Shown here: positions 18,395-61,925 of the stretch, piece after piece
Numbering within the stretch: the first letter of the stretch is position 1
Layout: each line of letters begins with the position of its first letter
Source of the DNA: Acutalibacteraceae bacterium
Lineage (GTDB): Bacteria > Bacillota > Clostridia > Oscillospirales > Acutalibacteraceae
Assembly (NCBI GenBank): GCA_045531265.1
Contig: JAZSDP010000078.1
Location: forward strand, 27,610-91,609
Length of the DNA stretch: 64,000 nucleotides
Reading direction: 5' to 3'
Translations under genes and position numbers: made by a program
Notes under the pieces: generated by a model
What the model saw: only the letters and a program-made list of their open reading frames with translations
What the model was told of the DNA's origin: nothing
Databases searched by the model: none

Positions 18395-18578
18395 GATACT
18401 AACTAAAAGTGACTCTTTATGCCCTTTTGGGGTTTCGGTATGCCGTAAAACGGTCAGGTCAGGGGCCGGGCAGGCTGATTTTTCAAGGGAAAAAGTGTAT
18501 CACAGTGAATTTCGTTTTTACGGCGAAGAGCCGTTTTATGAAATAAACAGGTTAATTTTTATTAAGGAGGAAATCTTA

Positions 18579-25883: not shown

Positions 25884-25908
25884 CACTAAATCGGAACATT
25901 TAAACTCA

Positions 25909-25942
25909 GAAGACACACTCCGTTCGGGGTGTGTCTTTTTTG
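25909..25942 (+). terminator. rho-independent terminator between the two large genes
   Basis: The stem gaagacacactcc / ggggtgtgtctt (about 12 bp) has a gttc loop and is followed by TTTTTT (25936-25941). Confidence 0.85.
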
Positions 25943-26191: not shown

Positions 26192-26220
26192 TTGAAAAAT
26201 TTGACTTCAAATGATATACT
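26192..26220 (+). promoter_or_regulatory. sigma-A-type promoter candidate for the giant gene
   Basis: TTGAAA (26192-26197), a 17-nt spacer and an extended -10 TGATATACT (TATACT at 26215-26220) are followed by the palindrome acctata-gt-tataggt at the predicted transcript 5' end. Confidence 0.6.
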
Positions 26221-26340
26221 ACCTATAGTTATAGGTGTCTCTATGGGCATTTTGCACCCTTTTTTAGGGTTCAGCTCGGTATTTATATAGGGAATCCTAT
26301 TTATAACATACATATTCTTTCATATAAGGAGGAAAATTTT

Positions 26341-29300
26341 ATGAAAGTTGGTAAAAAAGTACTAAGTTGCGTACTCGCTATCATTATGATAGTATCCAGC
26401 GTGTCAGTGTGTTTCGGCGTTCTCGGCGCAGGCAACACAATTGATAACCTCATGAACAGAATTGAGCTTAACCATGAAGCTCTGGCTGACTTCATACTTG
26501 AGGTTGAAACACTGGAAGCAAAGCTTGCGGCAGCTCAGACACAGGCTCTTAAGGAAGAGATCGGTGCTCAGCTGACGGAGGCTAAGAAGCGTATACCGCA
26601 ACAGGCAAATGCATCACAGTGGAAGGTTGAGGTTGACTCAGCGTCCGGTTCATGGACATGGGTTGCCCGTGCTTACGCTGAAGCAGCAAAGGTTGTTGTT
26701 CAGCAGAAGGATAAGCACACCTACTACGGCATTTATGCAGAGATTCTCTCTCAGGTTGACGCTGCAAGAGCAGGTAGAACTACCGCCCTTACAAAGGCTC
26801 AGTATGATGAGATTCTTAAGTATTTTGCCTTTGGTGAAACAGAAGAAGTAGCCGGCGGAGCATATGCAACTCCCAAAGTAATCACCCTTAATATCGGTGC
26901 AGGCTTTGACGTGCTCAAGTGGGCTCCTGATTACAACGAGATTCCTACAGATGCTGCTGAACTTCAGCTTTACAACAGCTGGGTTAAGTTCGGTATGTCC
27001 ACAGTAGGTGATGAAAACAACGGTCTTGTTGGTATTAATGAAGCTGATATCACATTTGATATGCAGAACCAGAACTCCGAAATGATTGCTCAGGCTCTTG
27101 ATGTTGTTAAGCAGTCAATCATTAAGTTCATTGCTCTTTCAGAAGAAGGTCTTACCGAGACCAACCCTGAAACAAATGAAGAAATTACATATCTTCCCTG
27201 GTTCACAACAAACTTCGCAGAACTTGCTGCAAACGATCCCGCTCTTCTTGACAAGACCATTATGCAGATTTCAGAGAAGATCGTTGAATTCGATACCGCT
27301 ATTGCAACTGCTCAGGTTGGTAACACCGAAGATATCTGGAACTCTTATGTAAGTCCTCATATCACCGGTAAAAAAACATGGGCTGAAGTTAACCGTTGGT
27401 ACGAAACAGAAATCGTTGGTTATATCGCAAAGGCTTATGCTACTCAGTTTAAGGCTCAGTTTGAGGCTGCCTTCGCAGCTGCTGATGCTCTGGGTGAAGC
27501 AGCTACAGGCGACCAGCTTTATGTATACTATCTTGAAGTTCAGGATATTCTTGCTGCACTTGACGAAACCGTTGCTTATGTAAACGGCGAATCCATCAAC
27601 ATCGCTGACCAGATCATCGATGCTTTTGACGGTGGCAGAGAATATTACAACAACATTCTTACAAGAAGAAATACTCTCGGTTATCACACAGCTTCAAAGT
27701 TCTCAACAGAATGGGCTGACAGATATAACGAAATCTATAACTTCAACCTTGTTGACTCCAAGGCTTCTGTTGCTATGGGCCACGTTTGGGAAAAGTGCGA
27801 CGGTACCTGCGGCACAACCTGTGACGGCAAGGGCAACGGTCAGGAAGACTATGTTGAAGGTACTGACTGTACATACGGTTGGGTAGATGCAAACGGCGAC
27901 GGCATTTTCACCGATGATGAAAAGACAACTGTTGCTCACTGTATCCATGTTGACTATAACAACGCTCTCGAATTCTATACAAAGGCCGCTGCTCTTGTTG
28001 CTGACTTTGAAGCAAAGGTATTCCCCCTTGTTACAAACGATGCAGGCGTAATTGCATTCGACCGTATTGCAACGGAAACTCTTAATGAGAAGAGCTGGAA
28101 TGCTTTCTATGCAACTTATCAGAAGGCAAACCTTAACCTCAACGGTGCTAAGTATATTGATATGAAGGCAAAGATGGATGCATTTATGGGTTCAATCCGT
28201 CTTTCCGGTGGTATGTCATACAACGTTATCAAAACTTATCACGATGAATTCGTAGCATTAGGTTACACAGAATGTAAGGATCTTTCAACTAACCCTGCTA
28301 CCAAGGATATCTTTGAAGAAATCTTCGGTAAAGCAGGTATGACTCCTTATGACAACTTCATAAATGACCTCAAGCGTCGTGCTGCTGTTCGTATTTATGA
28401 ACAGCTTGAAAGAATTGCTACATACTACGGCGAAGGTGGCAACAATGTTACATATTATAACTTCGAGTCAATCCTCGCCGCTGAAGCAGCTCTTGAAGCT
28501 CAGCAGGGTGCTCTCTTCACCTTCCTCAGAGCTAAGCCTGCTTACAATCCCGATGCTGACCAATTCTTCGATATCGTAAGAGATGAAGAAGGCAACGAGA
28601 TTTCACGCACACAGAAAGAAGGCGTTATCATTTATGATATCGATGACGACCTTGGTGCAAAGTACGAAGAAGTTTCTCCTTATACAGTTAGGGCTCAGGA
28701 GTTCAAGGATAACCTTGCTCTTATGAGAATGGAAGCTAACCTTAATCCTCTTGAAGAGTTCAGCTGGCAGGGCGATAAGACTATCCTTGCATACCTCTTC
28801 GACAGATACAACAACGCTAACAACTATTCCGGTTCTTACTATGAATATCTGTGGGTTAGCGGTAAGGGTAAGCTTGACTATGACGCTATTTCAGACCTTA
28901 TTGCAGAAGTTGGTCTCGGTCTCGGCGGTAAGGATACAGCTACTCTTATGGACGAAGTGGTTAAGAAGTTCGACAAGATGATCCTTTCCAAGGACCTTGG
29001 TTCACTTCTTGATGCACTTACAGCAAACTCTGCAACCGGTGAAGGTCTTCTCGGCACATGGGATATTACTTATACCTTCAATAACCCCGACGGTTCAACT
29101 ACCACAAGAACAAAGGGTGACAAGGTAGAAAACGTCCGTGAAATGCTCATCAACCTTATTATGGGCCTTCTTTACGGCGGTTCACTCCAGAATCTTCTTA
29201 TGTCCCTTTACGGCCTTCTCGGTAACGTAATTATGGACCTTGATATGGACATCCCTGTCCTCGGTCAGGTTGGTGCAAAGCTTCCCGAATATCTCCGTGG

Positions 29301-32300
29301 TGCTATTCCTCTTATGCCCCACTGGTTCACTGAAAACTGGAACGGCTACTCCTGTAACCAGACAGGTGTTCGTTGGTATAAGTGGTTCGACGGATCACTT
29401 CTCGGCTCATCATACAACTATGAAAATGCACTTCGTGTTCTCGCTCAGGCTCCCCGTCATGATTCAGGTAAGGACACCAAGTCATTCTGGGACAGCGAAA
29501 ACAGACCCAACTTCGGCACATATGCCGGTCTTCCCGAAGATGCTTGGGAAACCTATGAACCCGACGAAATCTGGCACGTAAGAAACAATGTTGACCTTTT
29601 CAAGTCACTTGCTGCCGCAGCCTGCGGTCTTGCTGCACCTCTCGGTGTTATCCTTTGCGCAAACGATGCAACACTCCGTGCAAAGTCAGATATTTTGAGC
29701 ATCGAACTTAATGCTATTGCTCATAACGCAGGTGACCCCCTGTATGACAGACTCTTCATTCCTCTTTATGAGCTTCTCGGTATTACTCAGTACAGCACAT
29801 CCAATCCCTACGGTTACAGAACCGGCAGCGAAATGAAGAACGCTACCGCTATTGCCGGCTACCTTGAAGGCGGCGACACTACACCTTATGTTCAGAACTA
29901 CGGTTATGACATGTGGTCATATGTTCTTACTCCGCTTCTTAACTGGATGGAAACCAAGCTCTTCGTTAATCCTCTTGAAACTATCCTTGGTCTTCTTCCC
30001 AATCTCTTCTGTGCTATTGAGTACAACCAGATTCTTCCCAAGATCAAGAACATTGCTCTTGAGTTCAAGCTTGACCTCTTCGGCGGTATCAGCCTTTACA
30101 CCCTTAAGGTTTGGGATCTTCTTGCTCCCCTTCTTGATAACCTCGGTCTTCAGCTCGATAAGGGTCTTGACGGCGTTATCAACATGCTCCTTCAGGTAAC
30201 AAAGACCAATAAGGCAACCTACGATGCCGAAATGGCTAAACCTAAGGAAGAGCAGAAAGCATTCCTTATGAAGTCCGTTCTTGATGCTAAGGGCAACAAG
30301 ATTTACGACCTTTACAATAAAGACGGCGACGTTATCCAATATAATGTAGATGTTGCAGCACTTACTGAGCAGTATCCTGACGGTCTTCCTAACGAACAGT
30401 ATACTTCTGAAAGAAAGGAAGTATATGTTGACAAGGACGGCAACTACTACTGGAAGCTCGGTCTTCTTGCTCAGACCCTCTTCGGCACAGGCAGCAAGGG
30501 CTGTAATGAAGGTTACCTTGAAATGCTTAACTTCAATAAGAAGTCAGGCCACGGTACAGTTCAGCTTTATGTTCCTGTTAACCGTATTGTTTCAATGGGT
30601 ACACTTACCCAGAAGACAGTTTACGGTACCAACAGCAACTGGACACTTTACCACATCAATGCTGACTCAGGTGACGTTCTTCTTGCCCTCTTCCGTTGGC
30701 TTATGAACGACGGCGTTGTTCCCAAGCTTCTTCCTCTTCTCAACGGCCTTCTCGGCGGCGGTGAAGCAACAGAAGAAGGTGGTTCAAGCGTTTCAATCAT
30801 TGATACAATCGTTCCCATTATCGACGGTCAGGCTGACACAGTTATCGCTATCCTTATTTCACTTCTTAACACATACGATGTAGGATACTTTAACTATGTT
30901 GACACATATAAAAACTTAGTTGATAACCTTAGCGGCGAAAAGCTCGAATACACAAACTTTGGCTCAAAGGATGCTGACAATGACGGTCAGCCCGACTTCG
31001 TCATCGGTAAATATCTCTCCGAGTCTCTCGCAGACATGGCTACCGCAGACGTTAACACAACTGACGAACAGAAGCTCGCCAAGGTTGACCTTGCAATTTC
31101 CAAGCTTGACGGACTTATCAATACAGTTGTTCCCTCAATCATCCCCGTTATTATGCCTATGCTCGATGACCTTCTTAAGGGTGACATCGGCGATATCGTG
31201 AAGCCTCTCCTTGAGCCTCTCAACGATATTCAGAAGGGCGACACTCTTGCAGACGTAGTAGCTGACATCCTTGTACAGGACGGCGTGATGCAGCTTCTTG
31301 CTGAGCTTCTCGTTGGTACCGGCGAACAGAAAGAGGAAACTCTTGAAGACGGCTCAAAGGTTCCCGCATTCCAGAAGGATGCAGACGGCAACTATGTTCT
31401 TGACGAAAACGGTCAGAAGATTCCTGTTATGGATACAGGCCTTCTCGGCGGTATCCTTGGCGGCGGCATGCTCGCAAACCTTCTTCCTGCTCTTGCAGAT
31501 ATGGACATTGACATCAGACCTCCTGCATTCTATGATGCAGCAGTTGCAGCAGGCTGCACAGGTATTTCCGATTGGATTCTTGGCTGCTACAACGATGCAA
31601 TTGCTCAGGGTGCAGATTTCAAGGGCGATTACCACAATATGGGTTGGGAATGGATGAAGGCTCCCGGCGAAAACCATAAGTGGTTCAATGTTGCCGAGGA
31701 TGCTACTGCAGAACAAAAGGTTGATGAATTCTTCAATCTCCTCGGCACACTCCTCGCTCCTCTTAACCCCATCCTCTTCCTCATCTTCAGCGGTCAGGAT
31801 CTTACCCTTCTTGATGAACTTACCATTGAAGGCGGACAGGGTTATCAGAGCGCAATGACTCTTCTTATCGAAAGCCTCGGCTTCGGTAAGGTTAAGATTG
31901 CCGGCACAAATTACACTGCTTCTATGTCCAGAAGCGATTACCTTGCATTCGTTCACGGCAGCACAGGCGGTACAGATGAAACCAAGATCCCCAAGGACGG
32001 CAGATTCTGGGCAACAGCTCACTCACCCCTTGCTCCTCTGTTCACAGCTCTCAGAGCATTCCTTGTAGGTGATGATGAAACAGGTGCACTCGGTCTTCTT
32101 GAAAGTCCTCTTACAGCACTTCTCAAGATGATCCCCAACCTTGCATATCTTCTCTATTCATACGAGACAGATGAGCTTGATGAAACAGGTGCAAAAGTTA
32201 AAACTAACAACCTTGCTCAGGCTGCTAAGAACCTTATTTCACCTGTACTTTCAGTTCTCAATATCATTGACCCCATTCTTTCAAGAGCTCTTGAACTTGA

Positions 32301-35300
32301 CATTGAATCACTTCTTGATTCATTCCTGAACGTTGAAAATATGCTCAACGACCTCATCTCCGGCCTTGTTGACGGCTCAGACCTTGACACCGGTGAGGAT
32401 ATCGTTGTTACAAAGTTCGTTGACTTTGGTGCTCTTGCAGTTTACGGCGGTAAAGCAAATAAAGATGCAATTTCACACACCACAGGTGTTGGCGGCACAT
32501 TCACAGAATTCACAGGCTCACCCGCTCAGACCCTTATTACACTTGTTCGTTCAATCATGACAGATGACCTCATCGATTCCTTCGTCACCATGTTCATGGA
32601 TTACTACGCAACAACAGAGCAGGGCCAGCAGATTACTGACGAAAACCGTGAAGACTGGGCCCGCGTTCGTGACATCGTTCTTGCACTTTCAGTTCGTGCA
32701 AAGACTCCCGCAACATTTGAAAACGGCAACTATAACGGTACCGGTGTTGACCTTATCGTAGGTCTTGTTGTTGACCTCTTCACTGACTATGTTCCCGGTC
32801 AGGGCGTAGAAATGTTCTACCAGAAGATGGCTGATGAAGGCTATAGCGATGCAATCATGGAAAAATACGGTATCCAGCACGTTCCTTATCAGTGGGAAAA
32901 CATCACCAAGGATGAAAATGATGATTTACTCTTCACTCCCGATGATGTTGAAGATACACTCGACAGCTTCGATGCAGTTATCAGAAAAGCTGCTCCCGAT
33001 GTTATCGGAATCCTTACTTCACAGGGCATTCTTGACCTCAGCTCACTCGGTATTGAGCTTGACGGTGAGGCAACAACTCTCTATGGAGTACTTACACAGC
33101 TTGTTGAAGACTTCCTCTTCACAGACGAAATAATGGCAACTGTTGCTAACCTTCTCGCTTCACTTCTCGGTGGCGGTATGGTAGGCGACCTCCTGCCCCT
33201 TATTAAGGATGCAGGTATTGACATTACAGCTGTTTCCATTTACAAGAGAACAAAAACAAACAGCGCACTCCGTGAATTTATGTCATACAATATCACCGGT
33301 GGTGTTGACGCAAACGGTCAGATTACTGTTGACGGTGAAAAGCGTGATATCACATGGGCTGACATTGCTGACGCTCACGGCTACCAGGCTTACGAATATG
33401 ACGAGCACGGCAACGTTGTAATGGACGGTGACGACGCTAAGCTTGCTTATACAAAGAAGCTCTCCGTTGACAAGGACGGCAAGCCCGTTTATGAACTCGA
33501 CGAAGACGGCGAAATCAAGCTTGACGCCCAGGGCAACAAGATTCAGGCCCAGGAAGATGACCTTGACAAGCCCACAATGAAGCTTATTACAAGCATTTAC
33601 GTCCAGGCTAAGAAGGACGGTAAATTCGTATATACCTATAAGGGTAAGGATGCAGAAGGCAACTCCGCTGACCTTGAATATCTCAGCGCATTTGCTAACC
33701 TTGAATCCTTTGCTGTTCAGGTATTTGAAGAAGACGGCACAACACCCAAGAAGGACGAAAACGGCAAAGAGGTATGGACTAAGTATGACCTCAAGCCTGT
33801 TTACACTGACGAAGAAATTCCCGGCGCATGGTCATGGGATTTCGACGATGTTGAATCACGCGGCTATAAGAACCACATCTACGGTAAACTCAGCTACTTT
33901 GTAGACAGCGTATGGGAAATCATCGGCGGTCTCGAGGATATCCTTGAAGCTCTCTTCTTCGGTGCTGATACCAATAAGGCCGTTAAGCTCTTTGACACAC
34001 TTAATATTGAAGGTACCGACGGCTTCGAAGATACACTTCTTCCTCTTCTCCGCGGCTTCGGTCTTGATGCTATCCTTTCCAACCTTAACAATTCTCCCGC
34101 AACAGATGCAGACGGTAATGCACTTGTTGACCCGAAGGGTGACGGTTCCGTTTACACTATGCTCGAAGAACTCAACGACGAGCGTAAGGTAACCTACGGT
34201 GACGAAAATGTAAACGCTATCCCCGCAAACCTTGTTAAGGGTAATGCAGGTATGAGACGTTCACTCGGTACTTGGAGAAATGCAGCAACAAACGAAATCG
34301 AAGCAGAAGCCTTCAAGAACTTTGCAATCGGCAGAGATTGGTTCGCAGAAGAACAGAACGGAACAATCTATTTCGACCAGGCAGCAGGCTATGATATGGC
34401 TACCTTCCTCAAGGTATTCCTCAACTATGTTCTCTACTTCGTTGAAATCCTTGCTTCCTATCCCATCTCAACTCTTATGAGTGCTCTCCCGACTCTCGCA
34501 TACTTCATCGTAGGCGACGGTCTTAACGAAATCGTTTCCAACCTTCTCAGATTCCTCACAGTTCTTACCGACAGACTCGCTCCCATCCTTGCTATTGATG
34601 TTAACGATATCGGTGCAGGTCTTGTTGATATGCTCGGTACTAACGAATGGGGTACATTCCAGGAAATCTTCAAGTTCTATGTAAATGAAGACGGCCAGAA
34701 GGTTTATGACGAGATCACATATGACGAAAACGGCAAGGTTGTAACTGTTCAGAAGCCTGCCGCAGAAAAGAACATCTCACTCACAGAGACTCTTCTTTCC
34801 TTCGTTGCAAACATTAAGATTGACCTTGACAGCGACGGCGTTCAGGAAAGCACAATCACACGCTTTATTAATGCTGAAGCTGAAAAAGAAGCATGGGCAC
34901 TTATCAATGCAAATACAGATGATAAGGGCGTTGTTAATAAGGATAAGCTTGAAGAAGCACGTCAGATGCGTACAGCCGCTGTTACAGCATGGCTCGAATC
35001 TGTTGTTGCTCTCGGTGAACCCTTCAAGGGCGACTATACTGATGCTAACGGCGTTGATCACAATGTTCCCGCTAAGTATCACGGCTATGTAAAGATTGAT
35101 GCTTACAACGGTCAGATCAGTGTTCCCAAGAATGATATGTTTATGTTCATTCTTGACTTCGTATTTGAAAACACAACCCTTCAGGAGGTTCTCGGCGATC
35201 TTCTCGGTTATGATATTACCGATGAAAACGGTACAGATGCAGACCTTCTTGACGAACTTCTCACTAACGTATTCAGAAATCCTGACTATCTTGTTGACCT

Positions 35301-38300
35301 TATCGTTGCTCTGTTCACAACCTACACAGTTGCTCCCAATAAGGACATCCCCTTCATCGATATTGATGAGTATCACTACAACTTCTACGATGAAGACGGT
35401 CAGACAACATACCAGGATATTCTTCCCCAGATTCAGGCAGGCACATATGCAGGCTCTGAAATCTCACGCGTAAAGACAGCTTACGCTATTGACAACCTTG
35501 ATAAGCTTGTTGGTACAGTTCTTAACCTGTTCAAGAAGGACCTTGTTAAGGAAGGCGGTCTCTTTGACGGTATCTTCACCGAAGAAGATGACATCAGCCT
35601 CAGCGTTGCCGTTAACGGTCTTCTTGAAGATCTTCTCTTCACAGACGATATGATTAACGACCTTCTCGGTATGCTCGTTGGTCTTCTTTCAGGTGAAGGC
35701 GTAGGCGACATTATAGGTATCGTAACTGATATCCTTGAAAGTGCTGCAGGTATTGACATTTCAACAGCGGCATTCGCAAATAATGATACTCTTGAATCAA
35801 TCATAATGAAGGACGGCAAGGCTCAGACCTGGTCCGAAATTGCTGAAGCTAATAAGCAGTACGAATATAAGTACGAAACAATTGACGAAGACGGCGAAAC
35901 TGTGCTTAAGGACGGCGAACCCGTATACGGCACATACTTCGACAAGTCTGCTACAGCCTCATCCGCAGTGGTTGACGCTGACGGCGACGGTGACGAAGAC
36001 GACACAGTTACTCTTATCCCTGTTTACAACCAGAAGCAGGCTCAGAATGCTGATAAGGAGTATGAATACTACTACTTCGCATCTGAAGAAGATAAGACAA
36101 ATGATATCAGAACTCCGTACTTTGATAAGGAACAGAACAAGACAGAGTATGTAATTCCTGCAACTGACGATGCTGAAGAGCAGAAGTTCGTACTTACTGC
36201 TGTTATGGTTGACGATACTGACAGCCAGAAGACAGCTGTTAAGTTTGACAAGCAGTGGAACATCGTTCCCGAGCTTGCTGACGATGCAACTGCAGAGCAG
36301 AAGGCAGCAGCTTCCAAGCAGGCACGCGATAACTTTGTAACTGTTCTCTGGGATGTTCTTGAACCTCTTTCACCCGTTCTTGAACTCCTCTTCACCGGCA
36401 GAAACCTTGAAATCTACGGTGAAATCACAATCCGTGGCTTTGACGGATACGAAGGCTTTATCCTTCCTCTCATCAATGCCCTCGCAGCCCCCGTTTATAC
36501 AAAGGCTGACGGTGTAACTCCGTACCTTGACACTAACAAATACTACCCGACTCAGGAAGCTTTTGAACTTGCTGTTTACGGTGCTGATAAGGCTCCCGGC
36601 GGTGAAGATGAAAATGCTGATAATACTCAGGTTCTTCTTCAGTCAATCCTCGATGCACTTCTTGCACTCGTTGATTCACTCTGCGACAGACCTATTTCAA
36701 CTATCGCAACTCTCCTTCCCTACCTTGCAAGATTCCTTGAAAGCAAGGGTATTGATACTATCCTTTCAAACCTTCTTTCACCCATAACTGCAATTACAGA
36801 TATGATCAAGAATGTATACAATCTTGACATTATGGGTCTTATCAAGGGTCTCCTTCAGGGCCTTGCAGCTGACATGAATAAGGATGCTGCAGCTCAGACA
36901 GCAGCAGGCTTCATCGAAGAAAAGATTGACGAAGCAGCCGAAGCTAACGCTAATGCAGGTGTTGCTCTCGCAGCTGAAGAAGACGATATCCTTAATAATG
37001 ACAGCGGTATCGACTACAGCAAGTACACCTTCATGGAAATCATCTGGGATATCCTTGAAGCTGTTCAGATTGACCTCGGTGACGGCAAGAAGCTTGCAAT
37101 CTCCGACCTCATCAACGACCAGTTCTTTGTAAAGCTTGCAGCTTGCGCATGGTATGACGACGAAGCCCTCGGTTATGTTATGATTAAGGGCATTGACTAT
37201 GCTGACGGCGAAGACGAAGACATCAACGACAGTAAGGTTACAAACGAGCAGAGAGACACAGACTACTATGTAGACCGTGAAACAGTTCTTCTCTTCGTAC
37301 TTGATAACCTTCTCTTCCAGGAAAGCGTTCGTGACCTTATCGGCGGTCTCATCGGTGATATGGAATTCACCGACGAAGCTCTTACCGAACTTAAGAACAA
37401 TAAGGACGAATCCAAGGTTCTTGACACAGACTATCTCCTTCCCGTACTCCTTTACGGCGTATTTATGGACGGCGAAGCTCTTGAAAGACTCCTTATCGAC
37501 CTTCTCTCCTGGTACGATGTTGAATATGCTCCCGAAAGAGTTGACAAGACAACTCCGAACTCAACTCTTCCTGAAGTTGACTGGGATGCAACCGGTCTCA
37601 ACGAAGCAGAGCTTGAGAACCTTCCCAAGCAGCTTGATGACCTTGTAGCAGCAGTTCTTCCTCTCCTTCTTGAACTTCTTCCCACCTTCGGTGTTGATCT
37701 CGGTATCGACCTCGGCGGTGCAACAGATATCAAGCACATCGTTGAAAATCTCATCGGCTCACTCTTCACTGATACAGTTGACGAGAAGACCGGCGAAGTT
37801 AAGAACGGCCTTGCAACAACTCTCTTCACACTTCTCGTGAAGCTCTTCGGTGGCAGCAACCTTGATGATATTCTCTCAATGGTTTATGAGCTTACCGGCG
37901 GCGACGAACATGCAATTAACCTTACACTCGCATACTTCAAGGATTCCTCGACTGCAATCGCTAAGTACTTCAATGAGTACAAGGATGCAGAAGGTAAGAC
38001 CAAGGCTATCAATACTTGGGCAGAAGCTTACGAAGCATTCAAGGTTAAGGTAGACTTTGACGCAGAAAAGAACTTCTCATATGCAGAAGAAGATGTAAAC
38101 AAAGAAAACAAGATCTTTGACAAGAATGACGGCGATTATCTCTACGCTGTAGATGATAAGGGCAATATCGTTCACACATATGCACAGGATGCAGAAGGTA
38201 AGGCAATTCCCGCAACTGATAAGGGCACAACAGCAGTTTGTCCTGACTGCGGTGAAACCTTCTATATCACTGCCGGTGACGGTAAGGTACTCGAAGGCGA

Positions 38301-44300: not shown

Positions 44301-47300
44301 AACAACTAAGGTAGACGGTGCAGATGTTGTCTACACAGTAACACCTGTTTACACAACAACTCAGGCTACCAAGGCTGTATATGACTTTGCTTGGGGTATG
44401 GACGCTATCGAAGGCGACGATGACGAAAGCAAGGTACTCAAGCAGGCTCACAAGTTTGTTGATATCATCGCTGCATTCCTGCAGCCCGTAGACTTCATCC
44501 TTGAAGTTCTCCTTGCAGGCGGTACAAATACCGGTGATGCAGAAAATGCTAAGTCAATCAGTGCATTTGATGAAATCAATATCATGGGCGGCTCAGGCTA
44601 CAACTATGCGATTATCCCGCTTCTTGAAACCCTCGGCGTACCCAACAGCATGATTCTCACTCAGGCTCAGTACGAAGAAAAGATTAAGACTGAAGGCACT
44701 CTCGCTCCCATCCTCGATATTCTTCTCGAGTATGTGATCGGCGGCCTCAACGCTCCTCTCTCCTTCGTAGCAGACCTTCTTACAAATCTCTTCTATACAG
44801 TAAGCCAGAACGGTCTTACAACAATCGTTTCCAACCTTATTGCTCCCGTATCTGAACTCGTAAGAGCTCTCGAAGATACTCTTCCCGTAGCAATCAAGAT
44901 CGACCTTACTCAGATCTTTGTTGAAGGCGGCGAAATCTTCAAGATTATGCTCGGTGACGATGTTGCAATCAACGGTGCAACAGTTGGTCTCGACCTGAAC
45001 CTTGATAACAATACAATCGAAGATCTCCTCTTCGGTGCAAACGGTGTTCTCAAGAATCTCGCTCCCGACCTTGTTATCAACTTCAACATCCGCGAATTCG
45101 TTCGTGCAGCAGTTGCAGTTGACGAAAACGGCGATATCATCTATGTAGATTCACTTGTTGATACTGATTACGATATCCTCACACCTGAAAACGTTGAATG
45201 GCGTGACCGTATCGTAGTTGACAGAGCAGACGCAGTTATCAACTTCCTTGACAGCATTCTTACAACAGAGACAATAAACAGTCTCCTCACAATGCTCGAG
45301 GTTGACCTTGACGAAATGCTCGGCGAAGATATGTCGTTCCTTGCTGATATCATCAACGATGCTATTGAAGCTCCCTCAACTCTTATCGATACAATAGTTA
45401 AGCTTCTCTCCACAGCTTACACTGTAGAAGACATTATGGTTCTTTATGATGAACTTACAGAAGCTGATTATAACTACGATAATGAAGTAGCTTCAAAGGA
45501 CGATGTAGCTCTTGTTCTTAACAAGCTTGATGCTGTTATCAACAACGCTATCGAGCCTCTCCTCGGTATCCTTTCAGGTATGGACAATATGCCCGCACTT
45601 GTAACAGATATCGCAGCAGCTATCGAAAACGGTGAAGCTGAAGCTACAATCGGCGGCGTTCTCGACTTCGTACTCGGTGATCTTATCTTCACTGATGAAA
45701 TCGTTAACACTGTATTCGGTCTTATTGTTGGTCTTCTTGGCTCAATGGATGCTAAGACATTCGACCTTATCAATAACCTCCTCGGCGAAATTCTCCACAT
45801 CAACCTTGATCCCGTTGAATTTGCACGTTCAATCGTTGCAGCAACAGGCGATACAAAGGTAGCAGACTATATCGCATCCTTCCCCGCAACTGAAGATACT
45901 GTTCTTACATGGGCAGATATCGCAGCTGCTAACAAGAAGCTTGTATACACCTACACAATCAAGGCAACTGAAGAAGGCGCTGAAGATAAGGTTGTAGAAG
46001 TATACTTCGATCTTGACAGAACAAACGAAACCGCTTACACAGCTGAAGACGGTGTAACTTACACCCTCAACAAGAAGATGGTTGAAAAAGACGGCGTTGC
46101 AACAGACGAGCAGGCAACCAAGGTTGTTATGACTCATAACTGGGGCGTTGATGCTGCAGCTGCAGCAGATAAGAAGGATGTATTCCTTGGCGCAATCCTT
46201 GAAATCCTTGCTCCCTTCGGTGCAGTTCTTGATTGGCTCTTCTGCGGTGAAGACATCGTTCTCGTTTACGAAGGTGTTACACTCCACGGCGGTAACGCTT
46301 ATGATAACGTTCTTGTTCCTCTTGTTAAGGCTCTCGGCGTTGAAATCGACACCGATGCCGAGCTTGATGCACAGAACAAGACTCATGCAGTTGACCGTGT
46401 TGAAGCACTCATTAACGGTATCTTCGCACTTGTTGACAAGCTTGCTGACAATCCCATCAACACAATCGTTGAGCTTGTAACAGGTCTCTCCTACTTCATC
46501 GCATCCGGTGGCGTAGCAGAAGCTGTTGAAGGCATTGCAGCTCCCATCTTCGGTCTTGTTTCAACTCTTGAAGCAATTGCTCCCATGTCAACAATCAACG
46601 AAATTATCGCTGAACTTGCTAAGGACGTTAAGCTTCCCGGCGACAAGCCTCTTACAATTGACAACATCATCAACATTGCAGGTGAAAACGGTGAAGGTCT
46701 TGTAGCTCTCATCAACAGTCTTATCGGTAAGATTGAAATTGAAGATGAAGCAGGTAACATCATTAACCTCAACCTCCTTCCCGATGACTTCTTCCTCCAG
46801 GTTGCACAGTACGGTGTAAACATTGAAACAGTTGCAGAAGTAACTGCTGAAATGATTGCAGGCGGCGTTGACTATCAGCCCGACAACAAGTACGTAACCG
46901 AGTGGTCAGTTGATAAGGCAGACGCTATTATGTATGTACTTTCAACTGTATGCTCCGACTCCTTCCTTAAGAGTCTCTGCTCACTTATGAACCAGCCTGA
47001 AGACAGCACCGTTGGCGGTATCCTCCTCGGTCTTGCAGGCAAACAGAACAATGTTGTTGATATTCTTGTAACACTTCTTACTGAATACACAGTAACATAC
47101 ACAGACTTCACACGTGCTCCGATTGAAAAGGAAGAAGTAACTCATACTGCTCCCATGACTGAAGAAAATCTTGAAGCTGCTCTTGCAGTTCTTGACAAGC
47201 TTATTCCTTCAGTAATCGGTCTCGTAGGTCTTGATGCAGACTCACTCCAGAGTCTCCTTGGTGAGCTTCTTGAAGGTCTCGATCTCGGTAATCTCCTTGC

Positions 47301-50300
47301 AGATCTCCTTGTTCCCCTTCTTGCAGGTCTCGACCTCGGTGAAATCCTCGGCTATGTTGAAGAACTTACTAACATCAGCGTTGACCTTTCACCTGAAGCA
47401 TTCACACACAACAAGTTCGGCTCCAAGCTTGCTGAATTCATCGGCAATGCTGAAACATGGGCTGACATTGAAGCTAAGTATCTCAACTACATTTATACTT
47501 ACGAATTAACCGATAAGGACGGCAACGTTGAAATCGGCGAAGACGGTAAGGCTAAGACAGCTGAATACTTCAGCATTAAGTCTGACCTTGACGGTAAGAC
47601 TGTAACCGTTGGCGAAGGCGACGATGCTAAGGAAGTTAAACTTTCCAAGAAGCTTGTTGAAACAACAGTTAAGGCTGAAGACGGTACAGAAAACAAGGTT
47701 AATGTACATGATACCAAGATGAAGTCCGACTTCGATTGGGAACTTGGCCTCACAGGTGTTGACGCATCCTTCGACGGCGTAATCGCTCTTGTATCCGACC
47801 TTCTCTATCCCGTTGACTTCGTACTCGGTCTCCTTCTCACAGGTGACAGAATTGAAGCACTTGAAGAAATCGGTATCACAGGCGGCCGCGGCTACAACTT
47901 CGCAATTATCCCGCTCCTTGAAGCATTTGGCGTAGAAGTAATCACAGAAGCTGAATATGTAGAGCAGGCTAAGACTAACGGTCACCTCAATTACATCCTT
48001 ACAGCTCTCTTCGGTAAGATTGAAGATGAACTTCTCGTATCACCCGTTAAGACTCTTCTTTCAATGCTTGCTAACCTCTTCTACCTTGTTGGCTCCAACG
48101 GAATCAACAATATTGCAGAAAACCTTCTCGGCTTTGCTAACTACCTTCTTGTAAAGGCTGAGCCCGTATTCAAGGTTGGTATCTCAATCGACCTTTCAGA
48201 AATGGGTCTTGTTGGCGGTAAGGTTCTCAAGACAACCTTCGATGCTGACGAAAACGGCAAGCCTATGCCTTATGTATCATCAATGGCAGCCGGTATCCGT
48301 GTAAATGTAAGTGCTGATGCACTCTCCAAGCTTCTCGGTGACCTTATTGCTGACCTCAAGCTTGTTGATATCGACGGCGACGGCGTAAATGATCCTCTCG
48401 GTCTTTCACTTGACCTTGACTTCACAGAGCTTGCAGCTAAGATGGCAGCAACAAATGAAGACGGCACAATCAAGAAGATTGCAACCTCTCAGATAACCAC
48501 TGAAGGTGCTCCTGCAACATGGTTCAATATTGAAGGTGATGTTGAAGATACCTTCACAACACTTATCGATACAATCCTTACAGATGAAAACGCATTCGCA
48601 CTTGCAAATCTCATCGAAAGCCTCCTTAAGGACGTTGACTTCAGCGGTATGGACGGCGTAGATGAAAACGGCGAAGCAAATGACGAAATCAATGTTAAGG
48701 GTATCCTTAACGACGTGCTCTACCAGAAGGACGGCATTAAGAAGGTTCTTGGTGCAGTAGTTCTCCTTCTCAGCGGTCAGTACACAGTTGTTAAGCCCGA
48801 TACAGCTTATAAGTTCCTTGGTATCCTCAGCTACTTCCTTGAAGGCGACGATACAGGCGATAAGCTCAACAATGCTATTGACAGACTCGATGCAATTATC
48901 GCTCGTGAAGTTCCCGAAATTCTCACAATGTTTATTGACGGCGACTCCGCAACCGGTATTCTCAAGTCACTTGTAGATGCTGCAGACGGTGCAACAGGCC
49001 TTGATGATATGCTTGATTCACTTCTCAAGGAACTTGCATTCACACCCGATAACTTTGCAGCTCTTATGGAAATGCTTGTTAAGGCTATTGCAGGCTTCCT
49101 TACTGCAGACCTTACAGGTACTCTCAATGACCTTCTCGGCATTGACCTTGCTCCTGCAGCATTCGCAACTGCAACAGGTAACGCTAAGCTTGTAGCTTAT
49201 GTTGAAAACGCTCTTGATGCAGATAACGAAGCTAAGGACGAACCCGCTGAACTCACTTGGGCAGACGTTTGGGCAGCTAACAGCACAGACGGTAAGGCAA
49301 ACGAATACGATTGGGGCGTAAATGACCAGAGCGGCTTCATCTCAGCAGTTCTCAGTCTCCTTATCCCGCTCAATCCTATTCTTGACTTCATCTTCTGTAA
49401 CGGCGCAATCGAGCTCCTTGACGGTTCAGTAAGACTTCCCGGCGGTGACGCTTATAATAAGGCTCTCATCCCGCTGTTCAAGGCTCTCGGCGTTGACCTT
49501 GCAACTGCAGAAACCACAACAGAAGCTCTTGATGCTCTTGTTGACGGTCTTATCGGTAACACAGGTCTCGTAGGCAAGCTTGCAGACGCTCCCTTCAGAA
49601 CAATTCTTGAACTTGTAGCAGGTCTCAGCTATCTCCTTGCAAACGATAACCTTGAACCCATCATCAGAAACATTGCAGCTCCCGTATTCTCAATCCTTGA
49701 TCTTCTTAAGGATGTAATCACAATGGATCAGATCGACGGTATCCTTGAAGGCTTCATCGGTATGAGCCTCACAGATATCATCGAAATCGGTAACAACGGC
49801 GGTGCTAACCTTGTTGACCTTGTAAACGGTCTTCTCGGCGGTATCGAAGTAAGAGATGAAAACGGAAAGCTCATCGACACTGTAGATGCACTTGACAGTG
49901 ACTTCTTCGTAGAACTCTCCAAGTATGCAATCGACGTAACAGATCCTGAGGGTCTTGTAGATCCCACAAATGTTGGCGAAGATGCAAACGCATGGACAGT
50001 AGACGCAGCAGAAACACTCATGTTCATCCTTGACAATGTTCTTGATGAAACATTCCTTAAGGTGCTTTGCGGTAAGATCGCTCCCGATGCAAGCGAAGAT
50101 GATATGCTCGTTGGCATCCTCACCTCACTTGCAGATAAGGAGATCGACCTTGTTGAAGTAATCCTTATGCTCCTTGAAAACTACACAATCAGATACAACA
50201 GATATCAGCAGACAACTCTCACCGGCGCTGCAGCAGATTACACAGCATTTGCTGATAACGCAGCAAAGGTTGAAGCAGCCCTTCCCAACGCTATCACAGC

Positions 50301-53300
50301 ACTTGATACACTTCTTGTATCAGTTCTCGGTATGCTTGGCACAGGCGATGACCTCGGTGCTCTTATCGATGGTCTTATTGCAGATGCTGATCTCGGTAAC
50401 CTTCTTATGAACCTCCTCGTTCCCGTACTCGCAGGTCTTGATCTCGATACAATCCTCGGTTATGTAAATGACCTTACAAACCTTGAGGTTGATATCGCAC
50501 CTCAGGCATTTGCAGATACTAAGTTCGGCTCCAAGCTCGGCGAATTCATCGGCGAAGCTGAAACATGGGCAGAGCTTGCTGCAGCTGCAGAATGGCAGCA
50601 GTATGTATACACATATGTTGTTAAGAACGAAGACGGTACCGATAAGATCGGTGAAGACGGTAAGGTAGTAACTGCTGAATACATCAGCAAGGACGGCACT
50701 CTTACCGAAGTTAACCTCGGCACTGAGAAAGAGCCTAATGTTGTTGCTCTTACAAAGGTTATGACAAATCTCACTGACCTTGAAGGTAAGAAGGCATACA
50801 CATATGGCGACGAAACTCTCTATCTTGCAGATAAGGAAGTAAAGGTTGCTGATGACAATACAGTAACAACAGTTATCAAGTCCGGCGAAGGCGACGCTGC
50901 TACAGAAGAAACTGTAACAATCGTTCCCGTTATGACTCACAAGACTCAGTTCGTTTCAACCTTCGATTGGAACATCAAGACTCTTGAAGATGCTGTTAAC
51001 TTCGCAGCTGACCTTCTTCTCCCGCTTGACGTTGTATTCAAGGTTCTCCTTGGCGGCAGCGAAATCATCGCTCTTGAAGACGGTGACACAATCAGACGTG
51101 CTGATATTCGCATCAAGGGCGGCTACGGCTACAACTATGCAATTCTCCCGCTTCTTGAAGCTCTCGGAGTAGATGCAATCAGCCAGTCCGAATACGATGC
51201 ACGTATCAACAGCGTATACCACGGCTCATCACTTAAGTACATCCTTGATGCAATCGTAGGCAGAGTTGACGAAATCCTTGCAACTCCCGTTCAGGAAGCT
51301 CTCGGTCTCTTCGCTAACCTCTTCTACTTCATCGGTTCAGAAGGCATCAACACCTTCGCTGCTAACCTCATCGCTCCCGTTCAGACTCTTCTTGAAGAAG
51401 TTTGTGACGTATATCCCATCTGCATTACCATCGACGGTAGCCAGATCGGTGTTGAAGGCGGTAAGATTATTGCAACAAGCTTTGATGCAGACTACGAAGC
51501 AGGTTCACTTGCAGAAGGCCTGAAGATTGACTTCAAGGCAGAGCACATCTCAGCTCTCCTTACAAACCTTCTCTCAGGTATTAAGATTAACGAGAAGCCT
51601 CTCGGCCTTACTCTCAACCTCAACTGGCTTGAGCTTGCAGCAGCAATGGCTAAGAGAGATGCAGAAGGTAAGATCATTTACACTGATTCTGCTATCGAAT
51701 ACGGTTATAAGAACACAACTGTTAACTCAACAGACCTTACAGCTCATAAGAATATTTCCGGTGATGCTGCAGCAACTCTTGTAACCCTTCTCAACACAAT
51801 TCTTTCAAATGAAAACGTTGCAGTTATCAAGAACCTTGTTAAGGATCTTCTTAAGGATGCTAACCTCGATGCAACAATCGAAAATCTCATCGACAACGTT
51901 CTCAGCGACAGAAATGCTATCATTAACCTTGTAGGTACTCTCGTTCTTGTTCTTACAGGCGAGCACGAAGTACGTGTAATGGATATGGTATTCAAGTTCC
52001 TCGGCGTAACTGACTACAATGTTGAAAACGCTGATACAGCAATTGCTTCCTTCGACAGACTTATCGGTAAGGCACTTCCCGTTGTTCTTGATATGTTTGC
52101 CGATACAAGCAAGCCTGAAGCAGAATGGACAATCCTTGAACAGATTGCCGCTTCCGGTGAAACAACACTTAAGGGTATTGCAGATTGGGCTCTCAACGAT
52201 CTTCTCTTCACAGACGATATGATGGCTACAATCACCGATGCACTCGTTGGTGCTCTTGCAGGCTTCCTTACAGAATCTCTTGCAGGTACTCTCGGCGATC
52301 TCCTCGGCGTTGACCTCAACCCCGTAGCCTTTGCACAGGCAACAGGTAACGCAGCTCTCATAGCTTATGTAACTGTTCCCGGCACAGGCACAGACGGTCT
52401 TGTAACATGGGCTGATGTTCTCGCAGCACACAGCACAACAACAACCGTTGACGGTAAGGAAGTAACAGAAATCGACAACGTATTCACAGGCGTTAATAAT
52501 AAGGATGCATTCCTTGATGCACTCTTCAGCCTGCTTACACCGCTCGATCCCGTACTCGGATTCCTCCTTCGCGGTTATGACCTTACAATCGGCGCAGGTC
52601 TCGGCGTAGACGATATCAAGCTCAAGGGTAACGACGGTTACTCCAATGCAATAAGCATTCTCTTCAAGGCTCTCGGCCTTGGCGAAATGGGCGCAACCTG
52701 GGTAGAAGCAACAGACGATATGAACGCTGTTGACGCTCTCAGACATACAATCGACTATGTATTTGCACTTGTTGATTCACTTTGCGCTAAGCCCTTCAAC
52801 ACAATCCTTGTTCTCCTCGGTAACCTCAGCTTCTTCGTAGCAAACGACGGTGTAGAGAAACTTATCAATAATCTCGTATCACCCGTTCTTTCACTCGTAG
52901 ATGCTCTCAGCGGTACAATCTCCAGAGCAGAACTTGATGCACTTCTCGTTTCACTTACTAAGAACGAAATGCTCACACTCAGCGGTATCCTCAATATCGC
53001 AGGTGACAACGGTGAAGCACTTGTAGAACTCCTCAACGGTATTATCCCCGGCTCCAAGGTTTACGAACCCATGAAGGATGCTGAAGGAAATATCCTTGTT
53101 GGCGAATATAAGGAATACACCAAGGAAGCTGTTGAAAATGATAAGAACAACACCTATGATGAAGTAGTGATTAAGGTTCTCGATGCTGACGGCAATCCCA
53201 AGAAGGATGACGAAGGCAACGAAATCACAAGAACTGCTTACTATAAGGTTGTTCACGTAATCAACGCACTTCCCGCAACCTTCTTCGTTGACCTTGCAAA

Positions 53301-56300
53301 GGCAGCAATTAAGGTTGATACACCCACAGGTCTTGTGGATCCCACTGATATCGGTAAGCCCGTTACTAAGTGGCATGTTGAAACCGGTGATACTCTCGTA
53401 TTCATCCTTTCAACCGTTCTTTCACAGGATGTTCTTGACATCCTCTCTAACCTCCTCGGTCTCACAGACGGTACAGTTAAGGATATCCTTAGCGGTCTCG
53501 TAGGTAAGGAAGAAGAGCTTCTTGATGTTCTCGTTTCACTTCTTGCTAAGTATCTTGTTGAATACAAGGCATATACACAGCCTGAACTCGATAAGATTAA
53601 TGTAACAACAGCTGAAACACATGATAACTTCAACGATATCGTTACAAATCTTGATGCTCTTATCCCGACAATTCTCAGCCTTGTAGAAATCGGCGGTAAG
53701 AAGTACGGCAGCCTTAACGAACTTATCAGCGGATTCATCACAGATGACATCGCAGATATGCTTGTAGGTATGATAGTTGAACTTCTCTCAGGTCTTCCCT
53801 CAGAGACAATCGACGAAATCCTCGGATATGTTAAGGAGCTTACAAACCTCAAGACTCTTGATATCAGCCCGAAGGCATTCGCAAATAACGACTTCGGTTC
53901 AAAGGTTAAGGCATTCTTCGAAGATGCTGCTGCAAAGGCAGGCACCACACTTGATAAGCTCACATGGGCTGAAGCTTGGGAAGCAACAAGCACAGTAGCT
54001 GACGATCCCGAAACAACTGATAAGGTTGAACGTAAATTCAACGGCTATGCTTGGGGCATTGAAGGTCTCAACGACCTTGTAGATCTCCTTTGCGACTTCA
54101 TCCAGCCTCTTGATCCTATCCTCCTCGTTCTTCTCGCAGGCGGTCAGGTAAGAGCTGACTTCGACGGTACAACCGTTGGCAGATCTATCAGTGCACTTGA
54201 TGAAATCAACATCATGGGCGGTATGGGTTATAACTACGCAATCATCCCGCTTCTTGAACTCCTCGGCGTTGACGCAATGAGTCAGGCAGCATATGATTCA
54301 GCAGTTAGCAACAACCACGGCAGTGCTCTCTACCCGATTCTTAACCAGCTTATCAGTACAGTTGAAAATGACATTCTCAAGTCACCCATCAACTGGCTTG
54401 CTAAGATTCTTGCAAATCTCACATATGTAATCGGCAATGATGATATCGGCACAATCGTTGATAATCTCCTTGCTCCCGTTAACCAGCTCATCGCTAAGGT
54501 TGACAAGGTATTCCCGATCGCTATCGACATCAACATAGGTGATATCGGTAACGAAACAGAATACAACAAGGTTGTAGACACCTACCTCGGCGTTGCACAT
54601 CCCGGTGTTGAGGCCGGTATCCACATCAGAGTTGAAGGCAAGGCTCTTGCAGATATGCTTACAGGTCTTCTTGAAGGCATTGAAATTGAAGGCAAGCCTC
54701 TTGGCATCAAGATTGATCTTGATTGGCTCAAGCTTGCAGCAATGGCAGGTGCTGATGCTGACAGCAATAAGAAGGTTGACTTCGAAACAACCAACTTCTC
54801 AACCAAGTATGATATTTACAACGGTGGTGCTTATAAGACCATCAAGGGTGACGCAGCTGACACCTTCGTAACTATCCTCAAGCTCGCACTCACTAAGGAA
54901 AATGTTGAAGCTATCCTTGGCGCACTCAATGTTGAACTTAGTCCCGAAATTAAGGATATTATCGACCAGATCGTTGAAGATCCCGCTAAGATTGTTGATA
55001 TCATTGCAAATCTCCTCGGCGGCAAGCTCGCTTACCAGCCGATCCAGAACAGACCTATTTCCGTAACAGGTGTTAACTACAACAGTTACTTCACCTTCAC
55101 AGAACAGAATGCAGATATCATTGCTAATAACCTTGATACTCTTCTTGTTCAGATTCTTGACCTTGCAGGCCTTGGCTCAATCAGACAGCTTCTCGGTCAG
55201 TTCATTAACAACGGAATGGTTAACCAGCTCCTTGACTTACTCGTAGGTCTCCTCGCAGGCGACTCCGTAGGACCTATCCTTAACACAATTGCAGGCATTG
55301 ACCTCGGCATTGAATTGCCGCTTACACTTCCCGCATTTGCAGCTAAGATCTCTGAACTCGCTAAGACAAGAGATTATCTTAAGGGTGCAGCAGCTCACCT
55401 TAATAAGGGTGTTGCAGCAGGCGGCGAAGATGCAACTTGGGCAAATGTAGGCTCCTTCCAGGATGCTAACGTTGATTGGAAGGTTAAGGACGGCGACCTC
55501 TACGGCTTCGTACAGGCTGTTGCAGGTATCCTTACACCGCTTAACGGTCTTCTTGAACTTCTCCTTATCGGCGAAGGCAAGTACCTTGACGTTCTTGGTG
55601 TTGTTAAGATCGGCGGCGGCAACGGTTACGACTACGGTATCATCCCGCTTCTTGAAGCATTCGGTCTCAAGTCAAGTGAAGTTAAGAATATCACAGAATA
55701 TAAGCAGGCTGTTGCTAAGGACGAAACTCAGCTTCTCGGCTATATCCTTAACAGAATCGCTTACTTCGCTGACGGTCTTCTTGACTCACCTGTAAATGAC
55801 CTTCTCACTATCCTCCCGAACCTTGCATATTACTTCTCCAACGAAGGTCTCCTTCTTACAGTGAAGAATCTGCTTGCTCCTGTTTACACCCTTGTAGACA
55901 CAATCACAAAGGTTCTCGGTGTTGATCTTGAAAGCTTCCTCAAGCTTGAAAAGCTTCTCAGCAATATCGATCTTGGTATCGTTGTATTCAACAACAAGTA
56001 TGATTTCAAGATTCCTGAAATTGATTGGCTCAAGCTTGCTGCACAGGGCGGCGATAAGGCTCAGGAAGTTTCAACTTCACGTTCAATCGCTGCAAACTCC
56101 TACACTAAGGAAATGCGTGCGGATGAATACCATGCATATACTCAGGCTAACCCGAATGCTCCTCATAAGAGCACTCAGAAGAACATCGTAGCAGATAAGG
56201 GCGATACACTCACACTTATCTTCACATGGCTGCTTGAAATGTTCGGCACTCAGCATAACAGAGACGCTCTCGTTAACTGGATTGTTGATGTATTTGAACT

Positions 56301-56746: not shown

Positions 56747-56776
56747 CCCCCACTCATCACGAGTGGGGGCGTTTTT
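56747..56776 (+). terminator. rho-independent terminator after the giant gene
   Basis: A 9-bp stem (cccccactc / gagtggggg) with an atcac loop is followed by cgTTTTTa. Confidence 0.85.
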
Positions 56777-56847
56777 ATTGTTCTCTTTGTTGACATAATA
56801 TTCTAAAAGCATTATAATGAGATAAAATACAAAAAGGATGATTGAAT

Positions 56848-59190: not shown

Positions 59191-59213
59191 ATACAAGCTC
59201 TCCTTTACTTTTT

Positions 59214-61912: not shown

Positions 61913-61925
61913 AAGGAGAAGTAAA

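Follow-up and report, generated by a model that had tools for sequence, protein, structure and literature searches.

What kind of protein is encoded by a single gene that occupies about 30 kb of a small genome and is kept under purifying selection? The question is raised by a 64,000-nucleotide stretch of DNA from an Acutalibacteraceae bacterium (assembly GCA_045531265.1, contig JAZSDP010000078.1, positions 27,610 to 91,609), the whole of which we call the window. Here, an open reading frame (ORF) at 26341..56697 on the + strand runs uninterrupted over 30,357 nt and encodes 10,118 amino acids (aa), or 1.098 MDa, with an isoelectric point of 4.16, a net charge of about -949 and an abundance of Leu, Ala, Asp and Gly. 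The region 29150-55900, in which a preliminary description had proposed about 15 old modules with a four-motif signature, falls wholly within this ORF. It establishes a large family of giant proteins of the cell envelope that so far lacks any annotation. Its features make it probable, if far from certain, that it is an acidic fibre of helical modules tethered to the membrane by its C-terminus, with a conserved stalk near the membrane and a variable distal head and inserts.

An iterated hidden Markov model (HMM) of 423 positions finds 15 module copies and a truncated 16th in the giant protein, in agreement with the number proposed. In the array delimited in this way module 1 is degenerate, modules 2-15 are full, and the 16th, at aa 9893-10026, holds the N-terminal part only. 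The four motifs (a Gly/Leu-rich segment; a TWA motif followed by a variable insert; a LLxPLxP helix followed by a G-x-G-Y motif; PNLxYF followed by NLxAP) are recognisable in modules 3-15 and degenerate in modules 1-2. The 15 core starts listed in the preliminary description all lie in frame 0, and each opens a motif like G-x-G-Y...P-L-L-E-A-L-G. Self-alignment had been named as a check on the repeats, and the periodicity proved highly significant: module 15 (M15) alone, used as a phmmer query, matched 22 significant stretches in the remaining protein and none in any of 20 shuffles, while BLASTP between modules gave E-values down to 1e-24. Comparison of module thirds by hhalign supported no internal duplication within a module (probabilities <=25%), so the basic repeat, as read from these alignments, is a unit of about 420 aa.

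The core-to-core spacings are 700, 727, 808, 693, 721, 655, 648, 567, 531, 520, 559, 503, 530 and 465 aa; the expected range of 465-810 aa, shrinking toward the C-terminus, is thus matched by a measured range of 465-808 aa. The spacing shrinks because the insert between the TWA motif and the LLxPLxP helix shortens, from 184, 171 and 134 aa N-terminally to 37, 40 and 26 aa C-terminally. These inserts had been described as rich in Y, T, E, D and G. Y, D and T are indeed enriched, as is K, and Leu and Ile are depleted, but G is not enriched.

All modules are encoded on the + strand. Module 1 (28930..30057, aa 864-1239) is the degenerate one, with the core GDPLYDRLFIPLYELLG, and is followed by module 2 (30595..32295, aa 1419-1985). 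Module 3 (32452..34605, aa 2038-2755) and module 4 (35077..36837, aa 2913-3499) carry the inserts of 184 and 171 aa, and after module 5 (37126..38814, aa 3596-4158) comes module 6 (39091..40992, aa 4251-4884), whose insert is among the largest, and then module 7 (41398..42960, aa 5020-5540). In the C-terminal half a matrix of bit scores separates two alternating subtypes. Subtype A comprises modules 8 (43324..44898, aa 5662-6186), 10 (46810..48183, aa 6824-7281), 12 (49888..51429, aa 7850-8363) and 14 (53293..54525, aa 8985-9395), and subtype B comprises modules 9 (45103..46590, aa 6255-6750), 11 (48388..49728, aa 7350-7796) and 13 (51592..52926, aa 8418-8862). The last full copy, M15 (54694..55935, aa 9452-9865), is the most conserved, being 76% identical to its orthologue; M14 and M15 are the modules whose structure was modelled. 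Over modules 8-14 (43324-54525) families of DNA repeats are spaced at 3.1-3.3 kb, consistent with the A/B alternation. Together, the alternation and the DNA repeats argue that in the latest expansions the duplicated unit was a pair of modules, together about 1,050 aa long. This super-repeat was not part of the preliminary description, and neither were the beta connectors, the conserved C-terminal domain with its amphipathic tail and the size of the family, which are described below.

How old is the array? Modules share 22-30% amino acid identity with M15, and the DNA of the copies is only 60-81% identical, even over the best-conserved 69 nt. Therefore the repeats are old, and represent neither a recent duplication nor an assembly artefact. 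A partial relative of 7,429 aa (P0009) is colinear with aa 2404-10118 of the giant protein at 59% identity, and here the modules are 48% (M3) to 76% (M15) identical to their positional orthologues, with the values rising toward the C-terminus. Orthologues are thus far more alike than paralogues, from which it follows that the array is old and stable and has evolved without concerted evolution. The claim of old duplications and not of assembly collapse is borne out by both comparisons.

The selection pattern was obtained with a closer orthologue (L001), which shares 92% amino acid identity with the giant protein over 3,735 codons. The ratio of nonsynonymous to synonymous substitution rates (dN/dS) is 0.17 overall; it drops to 0.11 in the cores and 0.12 in the C-terminal domain and stands at 0.20 in the rest of the modules. 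At 0.17, the gene is functional and under purifying selection. Variability and indels are greatest in the inserts, where identity is 55% and gap columns make up 15%; the corresponding values for the cores are 70% and 5%. Similarity to the N-terminal head of about 860 aa is detectable in four relatives only, at 23-30% identity, whereas 24 relatives share 45-65% identity over the last 253 aa.

The preliminary description had also asked whether the module belongs to a known repeat family of the Pfam or InterPro type. No Pfam family matched any of the 10,118 aa, nor any of 44,000 aa in 18 diverse relatives; no NCBIfam family matched the giant protein and no PHROGs family matched aa 1-8000. Sequence searches of the PDB with the module, the core and the head returned nothing below E = 0.1. 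AlphaFold2 modelled M15, from an alignment of 24 modules, as about 20 helices and two small hairpins, with a mean predicted local distance difference test score (pLDDT) of 75 and a predicted template modelling score (pTM) of 0.62; the core of this model (residues 170-400) reaches a pLDDT of 85-95. The second model, which spans M14, M15 and the C-terminal domain (pLDDT 71, pTM 0.51), has the same helical modules with short beta elements in between, and its last 90 residues, of low confidence, end in a 35-residue helix. When both models were compared with the PDB by Foldseek, no match had E <= 0.001 (best values 0.75 and 0.13, TM-scores about 0.1), and the best E-value against BFVD was 0.79. The weak top matches were generic HEAT-type solenoids (SF3B1, mTOR, HTT, CAND1) and talin. 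On these models the module appears to be structurally new.

It had been suggested that a few fixed residues argue for a specific fold or binding surface, and the model gives substance to the first of these ideas while speaking neither for nor against the second. Across the family the most conserved residues are, in M15 numbering, Y312 (96%), G308 (95%), P396, G324, N392 and P282. In the model they occupy the junction of hairpin and helix, the helix caps and the helix-helix turn of NLxAP within the confidently predicted helical core, which fits the conserved Gly, Pro, Tyr and Asn being fold determinants at helix ends and turns. Tyr, Glu and Asn, a polar trio, could in addition make up a small conserved site.

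How widely is such a protein distributed? Word-indexed searches with M15, with the module alignment and with a diverse core alignment gave 8, 25 and 4 unnamed fragments, and the family emerged by exhaustive profile search, which returned 647 cluster representatives at E <= 1e-3, of which 369 had E <= 1e-30. These relatives are mostly 2,000-7,700 aa long with 5-23 matched stretches, and the best-conserved part of the module among them is its last 150 aa or so. We define membership by at least two modules with the core LxPLxPxLxxLLxG ... G-x-G-Y-x-x-x-[IL]-x-P-L-[LI]-E-A-L-G ... PNLxYF ... NLxAP, by a signal peptide, and by a C-terminal transmembrane helix or Phe/Lys tail. The window protein has all of these, with 15 cores, and is the largest member seen (10,118 aa, 15 modules). 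Among 88 complete members, in which these ends were observed, the length ranges from 867 to 7,691 aa and the number of cores from 2 to 13, and the two are tightly correlated (r = 0.96, about 620 aa per core). The few named relatives are all annotated as 'hypothetical protein', and come from metagenome-assembled genomes (MAGs) of Clostridia, Ruminococcus sp. and Oscillospiraceae.

A scan of species-representative genomes, for which the query was a five-sequence core alignment that favours close relatives with the strict GGxGY[ND][YF][AG]I[IL] motif, found 65 loci. All are in MAGs labelled Acutalibacteraceae, Oscillospiraceae, Ruminococcaceae or 'uncultured Faecalibacterium', and the sources, where named, are ruminant, deer, sheep, goat, rabbit and human gut. 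Over the M15 core, identity reaches 96% at the best locus (L001). At least one MAG, RGIG4739, has two separate giants on different contigs (L002, L027), indicating that paralogous giants can coexist. Searches with tblastn gave no match to the family in 72,556 plasmids or in phage records.

The smallest complete members (P0166-P0173, for example L066 8001-10616) have only 867-879 aa, with a signal peptide, two cores and a C-terminal anchor, and could serve as tractable minimal models of the family. Genomic context was uninformative for these small relatives (P0169 has histidine-biosynthesis neighbours) and for P0196, which lies on a frameshifted long-read contig.

The ends of the giant protein are as characteristic as its body. 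The N-terminus (26341..26433, + strand) has the features of a signal peptide, with MKVGKK, a hydrophobic stretch of about 22 aa and then GAG; 131 of 194 fetched relatives start in the same way. Next comes the N-terminal head (26434..28929, +; aa 32-863), which is poorly conserved and has no match in Pfam or the PDB. A cluster of cysteines at aa 486-534 (27796-27942) accounts for 5 of the 31 in the protein and includes a DANGDGIFTDDE loop, whose sequence resembles an EF-hand or dockerin calcium-binding loop. In relatives, similar D-x-N-G-D-G-K-V-D loops are found where B-type modules start.

At the other end, the C-terminal domain (55936..56628, +; aa 9866-10096) is conserved and is composed of beta elements and the N-part of the truncated 16th module (aa 9893-10026). 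It is invariably terminal in relatives. In about 60 loci the ORF ends some 1.2 kb past the last core, so that the last module, this domain and the tail form a fixed terminus. Within the domain lies a hydrophobic helix of 20 aa, IIVSALFAALGMAIGLDAAI (aa 10011-10033, 56371-56439; Kyte-Doolittle 2.08), which could be a stop-transfer transmembrane segment or a buried helix, the model being of low confidence there. An acidic linker of 88 aa (20 D/E against 3 K/R) leads from this helix to the tail, NWFQRLIKKIKEFFQKIFGIFK (56629..56694, +), which is rich in Phe and Lys and strongly amphipathic, with a charge of +5. Its hydrophobic moment of 0.725 is the highest of all 10,096 22-mers in the giant protein (mean 0.21, SD 0.11).

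The tail is conserved in 84 distinct relatives. Among complete relatives, 71 proteins end in such a tail, with the consensus xFFQKIIxFFKKIxxFFKNLF, and 26 proteins end in a transmembrane helix followed by KKKK. The tail and the classical stop-transfer anchor thus occupy the same position in paralogues, and for this reason we infer that the C-terminus is the cell-attached end. A third type of end, NVNTGD followed by a transmembrane helix and RKKKEN, is found in the small two-module members (P0166 group) and looks like a clostridial sortase signal.

The tail motif is present in one other protein of the window. The upstream neighbour (ORF 18495..25883, +; 2,462 aa) is unrelated to the giant, is beta-rich with Listeria-Bacteroides repeat (Flg_new), Ig-like and CarboxypepD_reg domains, and has no helical module. 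Its true start is probably Met29 (nt 18579), after which a signal peptide follows. Near its C-terminus, at 25803..25838 (+), it carries FFRFFQKIIKLF with Cys-rich stretches on both sides. Within the window the motif is confined to these two proteins, and it was absent from all of about 480 non-family ORFs in related loci. When metagenomes were scanned for FFQKIIx[FW]F in back-translation, chance matches resulted, and the only true tail among the matches listed (L130) belongs to a family member. The occurrence on two unrelated exported proteins hints that the Phe/Lys tail may serve as a portable signal for C-terminal anchoring or sorting.

How could these parts work together? Export, membrane tethering, extended shape and an adhesive or spacer role are what we infer from the sequence features and the predicted models. 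The host, a monoderm gut bacterium of the Clostridia, Acutalibacteraceae-like, would export the giant by the Sec pathway as a structural protein; it would then be held at the cytoplasmic membrane by its C-terminus and project outward as a long modular fibre. The body of this fibre would be a chain of 15 paralogous modules of about 420 aa, each with about 18-20 helices and small beta hairpins, joined to its neighbours via short beta connectors, and its length would be set by the module number. C-terminal attachment and the conservation gradient together place the stalk proximally and leave the head and the insert-rich modules distal and exposed. The membrane-proximal modules and the C-terminal domain would accordingly be predicted to form the conserved stalk, and the large, putatively beta-rich inserts of the distal modules (K, Y, D, T) and the fast-evolving 830-aa head may form an interaction surface that serves adhesion, spacing or masking of the cell surface. 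In keeping with this reading, searches of the window protein and of 18 diverse relatives turned up no domain, catalytic or other.

Several observations weigh against such a tethered fibre. No domain that would bind a ligand was identified. The pTM of 0.51-0.62 leaves the geometry between modules uncertain. The protein has no LP.T[GAN] motif of the LPXTG type anywhere, and neither an SLH nor another known wall-binding domain was found in it. The acidic stretch behind the hydrophobic helix at aa 10011-10033 violates the positive-inside rule, and the tail could be an oligomerisation element of the Phe-zipper type or a secretion element instead of an anchor. Across the 65 loci the downstream genes differ, and no partner gene is conserved there. 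Finally, the support consists of sequence features and predicted models, and the named relatives come from uncultured bacteria.

Four other explanations have to be weighed. The giant might be an envelope-integrity scaffold like Ebh, that is, a tethered helical fibre in or along the cell wall that stabilises the envelope or controls cell size. A giant, helical and acidic protein that is anchored at its C-terminus, lacks any recognisable adhesive domain, is under purifying selection over its whole length and keeps its module order colinear and stable between species would suit this role. However, the variable head and indel-prone inserts point to an exposed, diversifying distal end, and a module number that varies from 2 to 15 among members is unexpected if it were matched to a fixed wall thickness, so that we consider a scaffold rather unlikely. 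The tail itself leads to another proposal. Its heptad-like FFxKIIxFFKKIxxFF pattern may indicate a coiled-coil oligomerisation element resembling a Phe zipper, or the tail may be a secretion or sorting signal, and the protein would then be shed to build a biofilm matrix or fibres outside the cell. As would be expected of a sorting signal, the tail recurs on an exported neighbour of unrelated sequence, and it could be a new signal, since no known model matched: NCBIfam sorting-signal models (PEP-CTERM, GlyGly-CTERM, PGF-CTERM and others) gave nothing at E <= 0.001 in the last 2,118 aa, a weak negative because short motifs score poorly. Yet paralogues swap the tail for a classical transmembrane helix with a KKKK stop-transfer signal, which indicates equivalence with a membrane anchor, and cationic helices of such strong amphipathicity typically bind membranes in plane. 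A released matrix protein is therefore quite improbable.

Could the protein instead cross or enter the membrane many times, through the LLxPLxPxLxxLL helix of each module? Taken over their best 19-aa windows, these helices have Kyte-Doolittle values of 1.2-2.0, and giant Omnitrophota proteins with many transmembrane regions have been described (10.1101/2023.11.21.568195). But 13 of the 15 helices carry 1-4 charged residues, all but that of module 3 carry 1-2 prolines, and the high-confidence part of the model buries them in a soluble bundle; values above 2.0 occur only at the signal peptide, near aa 1089 and at aa 10011, and the modules are extremely acidic. With these charges, prolines and buried positions we judge transmembrane core helices unlikely, and a polytopic or membrane-active protein is very hard to credit. 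Since the DNA probably comes from a metagenome-assembled genome, an assembly chimera or a decaying, non-functional repeat expansion also had to be considered. This explanation is effectively refuted by the open frame of 30,357 nt with its ribosome-binding site and terminator, by the DNA identity of only 60-81% between copies, by colinear orthologues in independent assemblies and by the dN/dS of 0.17. The tethered fibre with its conserved stalk remains the reading that we prefer.

The setting of the gene is, by its neighbours, an ordinary chromosomal housekeeping context. Upstream are glgB-glgC-glgD-glgA, glycogen phosphorylase, QueH and an ABC transporter, and downstream are a class II aldolase, two EEP-family genes, GluRS and GlnRS. 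The upstream gene closes with a terminator with a 14-bp stem (25908-25939), 5' of the giant gene. Two overlapping sigma-70-like promoter sites follow at 26192..26229 (+), each with 10 of 12 consensus positions and so promoter-like by consensus match only, and a Shine-Dalgarno AAGGAGG can be read at 26326..26332 (+), 8 nt before the ATG of the giant gene. At its 3' end there is a hairpin like an intrinsic terminator (56747..56769, +; 9-bp stem, 7 GC pairs, T-run), beyond which lies a promoter of the next gene (56790-56818) with 12/12 consensus matches. Judged by these promoter-like sites, the ribosome-binding site and the flanking terminators, the giant gene looks like its own transcription unit.

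Other ORFs of the window deserve mention. The module is absent from every one of them, the upstream 2,462-aa protein included. A 195-aa ORF (57689-58276, +) has a signal peptide and no Pfam or NCBIfam match, and in the related loci L001 and L002 it is likewise found behind the aldolase gene. Next to it the two EEP-family (endonuclease/exonuclease/phosphatase) genes stand in tandem at 58321-60086 (-), followed by adjacent genes for GluRS-like and GlnRS-like class I tRNA synthetases at 60269-63581 (+). Near the other end of the window a 552-aa ORF (1081-2739, -) has an N-terminus like a signal peptide, no Pfam or NCBIfam match and no helical module.

The Oscillospirales, to which the Acutalibacteraceae belong, are widespread in gut and rumen; most are uncultured, and their interactions with fibre, mucus, host and phages are poorly known. 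In a family of at least 647 sequence clusters no residue is covered by Pfam, NCBIfam or a solved structure. The module definition provides an annotation handle for hundreds of 'hypothetical' giants and a candidate new fold for structural work. The alternative ends, transmembrane helix or Phe/Lys tail, offer a hypothesis for the display of megadalton proteins without LPXTG in monoderm gut bacteria, and the pattern of conserved stalk and variable tip marks the parts likeliest to mediate host, substrate or phage interactions. A bolder proposal, which we put forward tentatively and regard as doubtful in its full extent, combines a new fold, a so far unseen surface appendage of at least 100 nm in abundant uncultured gut Oscillospirales, and the FFQKIIxFFKxLF tail as a new portable anchoring or sorting signal on the giant and its beta-rich neighbour. 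If true, this would define an unrecognised route of surface display parallel to LPXTG/sortase.

How does the giant compare with known systems? Functionally nearest are Ebh and Embp of Staphylococcus. They too are exported proteins of about 1 MDa from a monoderm Firmicute with helical-bundle repeats and C-terminal attachment; for the window protein attachment and rod shape are predicted. Ebh has a C-terminal transmembrane anchor. Embp, of 1 MDa, has F and FG repeats made of alpha-helical bundles (PMC7587433). In both, tens of such repeats are thought to form an elongated rod. However, the FIVAR, GA and DUF1542 repeats and the YSIRK signal peptide of these proteins were not found in the window protein, and its repeat unit is much larger (about 420-800 aa, with about 20 helices and beta connectors, against about 125-170 aa). 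It further differs in copies diverged to 22-30% identity, in the amphipathic-tail anchor and in its gut Oscillospirales host.

Giant proteins of Clostridia and Oscillospiraceae with RCC1, Listeria-Bacteroides, YG repeat and dockerin domains were described by West-Roberts et al. 2023 (10.1101/2023.11.21.568195). They share with the window protein the host class, the mammalian-gut habitat, the scale of 10,000+ aa and the repeat-only architecture, but their repeats are known and mostly beta-propeller or beta-rich Pfam families, whereas the window giant is mainly helical and has none of them. In contrast to the giant, its upstream neighbour (18495..25883) does belong to this known kind. The 'Hodor' conjugative megaplasmids encode giants of 7,309-7,704 aa and about 2,642 aa with S-layer and MBG (YGX) domains (10.64898/2026.02.21.707213), and in gut Clostridia they likewise pair a giant with a secreted protein of about 2.5 kaa. 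Those giants are plasmid-borne beside sortases and Sec genes, while ours lies in a chromosomal context and lacks S-layer and MBG domains.

HEAT/ARM alpha-solenoids and the talin rod are likewise chains of helical repeats or bundles, and were the only, very weak, structural neighbours. None is a credible match (E >= 0.13, TM-scores about 0.1, no Pfam or sequence match), and the unit in the window protein is about 10 times the length of a HEAT repeat, bacterial and, by prediction, extracellular. C-terminal amphipathic helices serve as membrane anchors in E. coli PBP5/PBP6 and in MinD-type membrane targeting. Like these, the tail of the giant is short, cationic, strongly amphipathic and at the extreme C-terminus; unlike them, it has the Phe-rich consensus FFQKIIxFFKxLF, is carried by giant exported proteins and is interchangeable with a transmembrane helix plus KKKK. 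Since the defining domains of the known giants are absent and the setting is chromosome-like, the giant represents a new family, with an unusual anchor, within the known general kind of giant modular exported proteins of Gram-positive bacteria.

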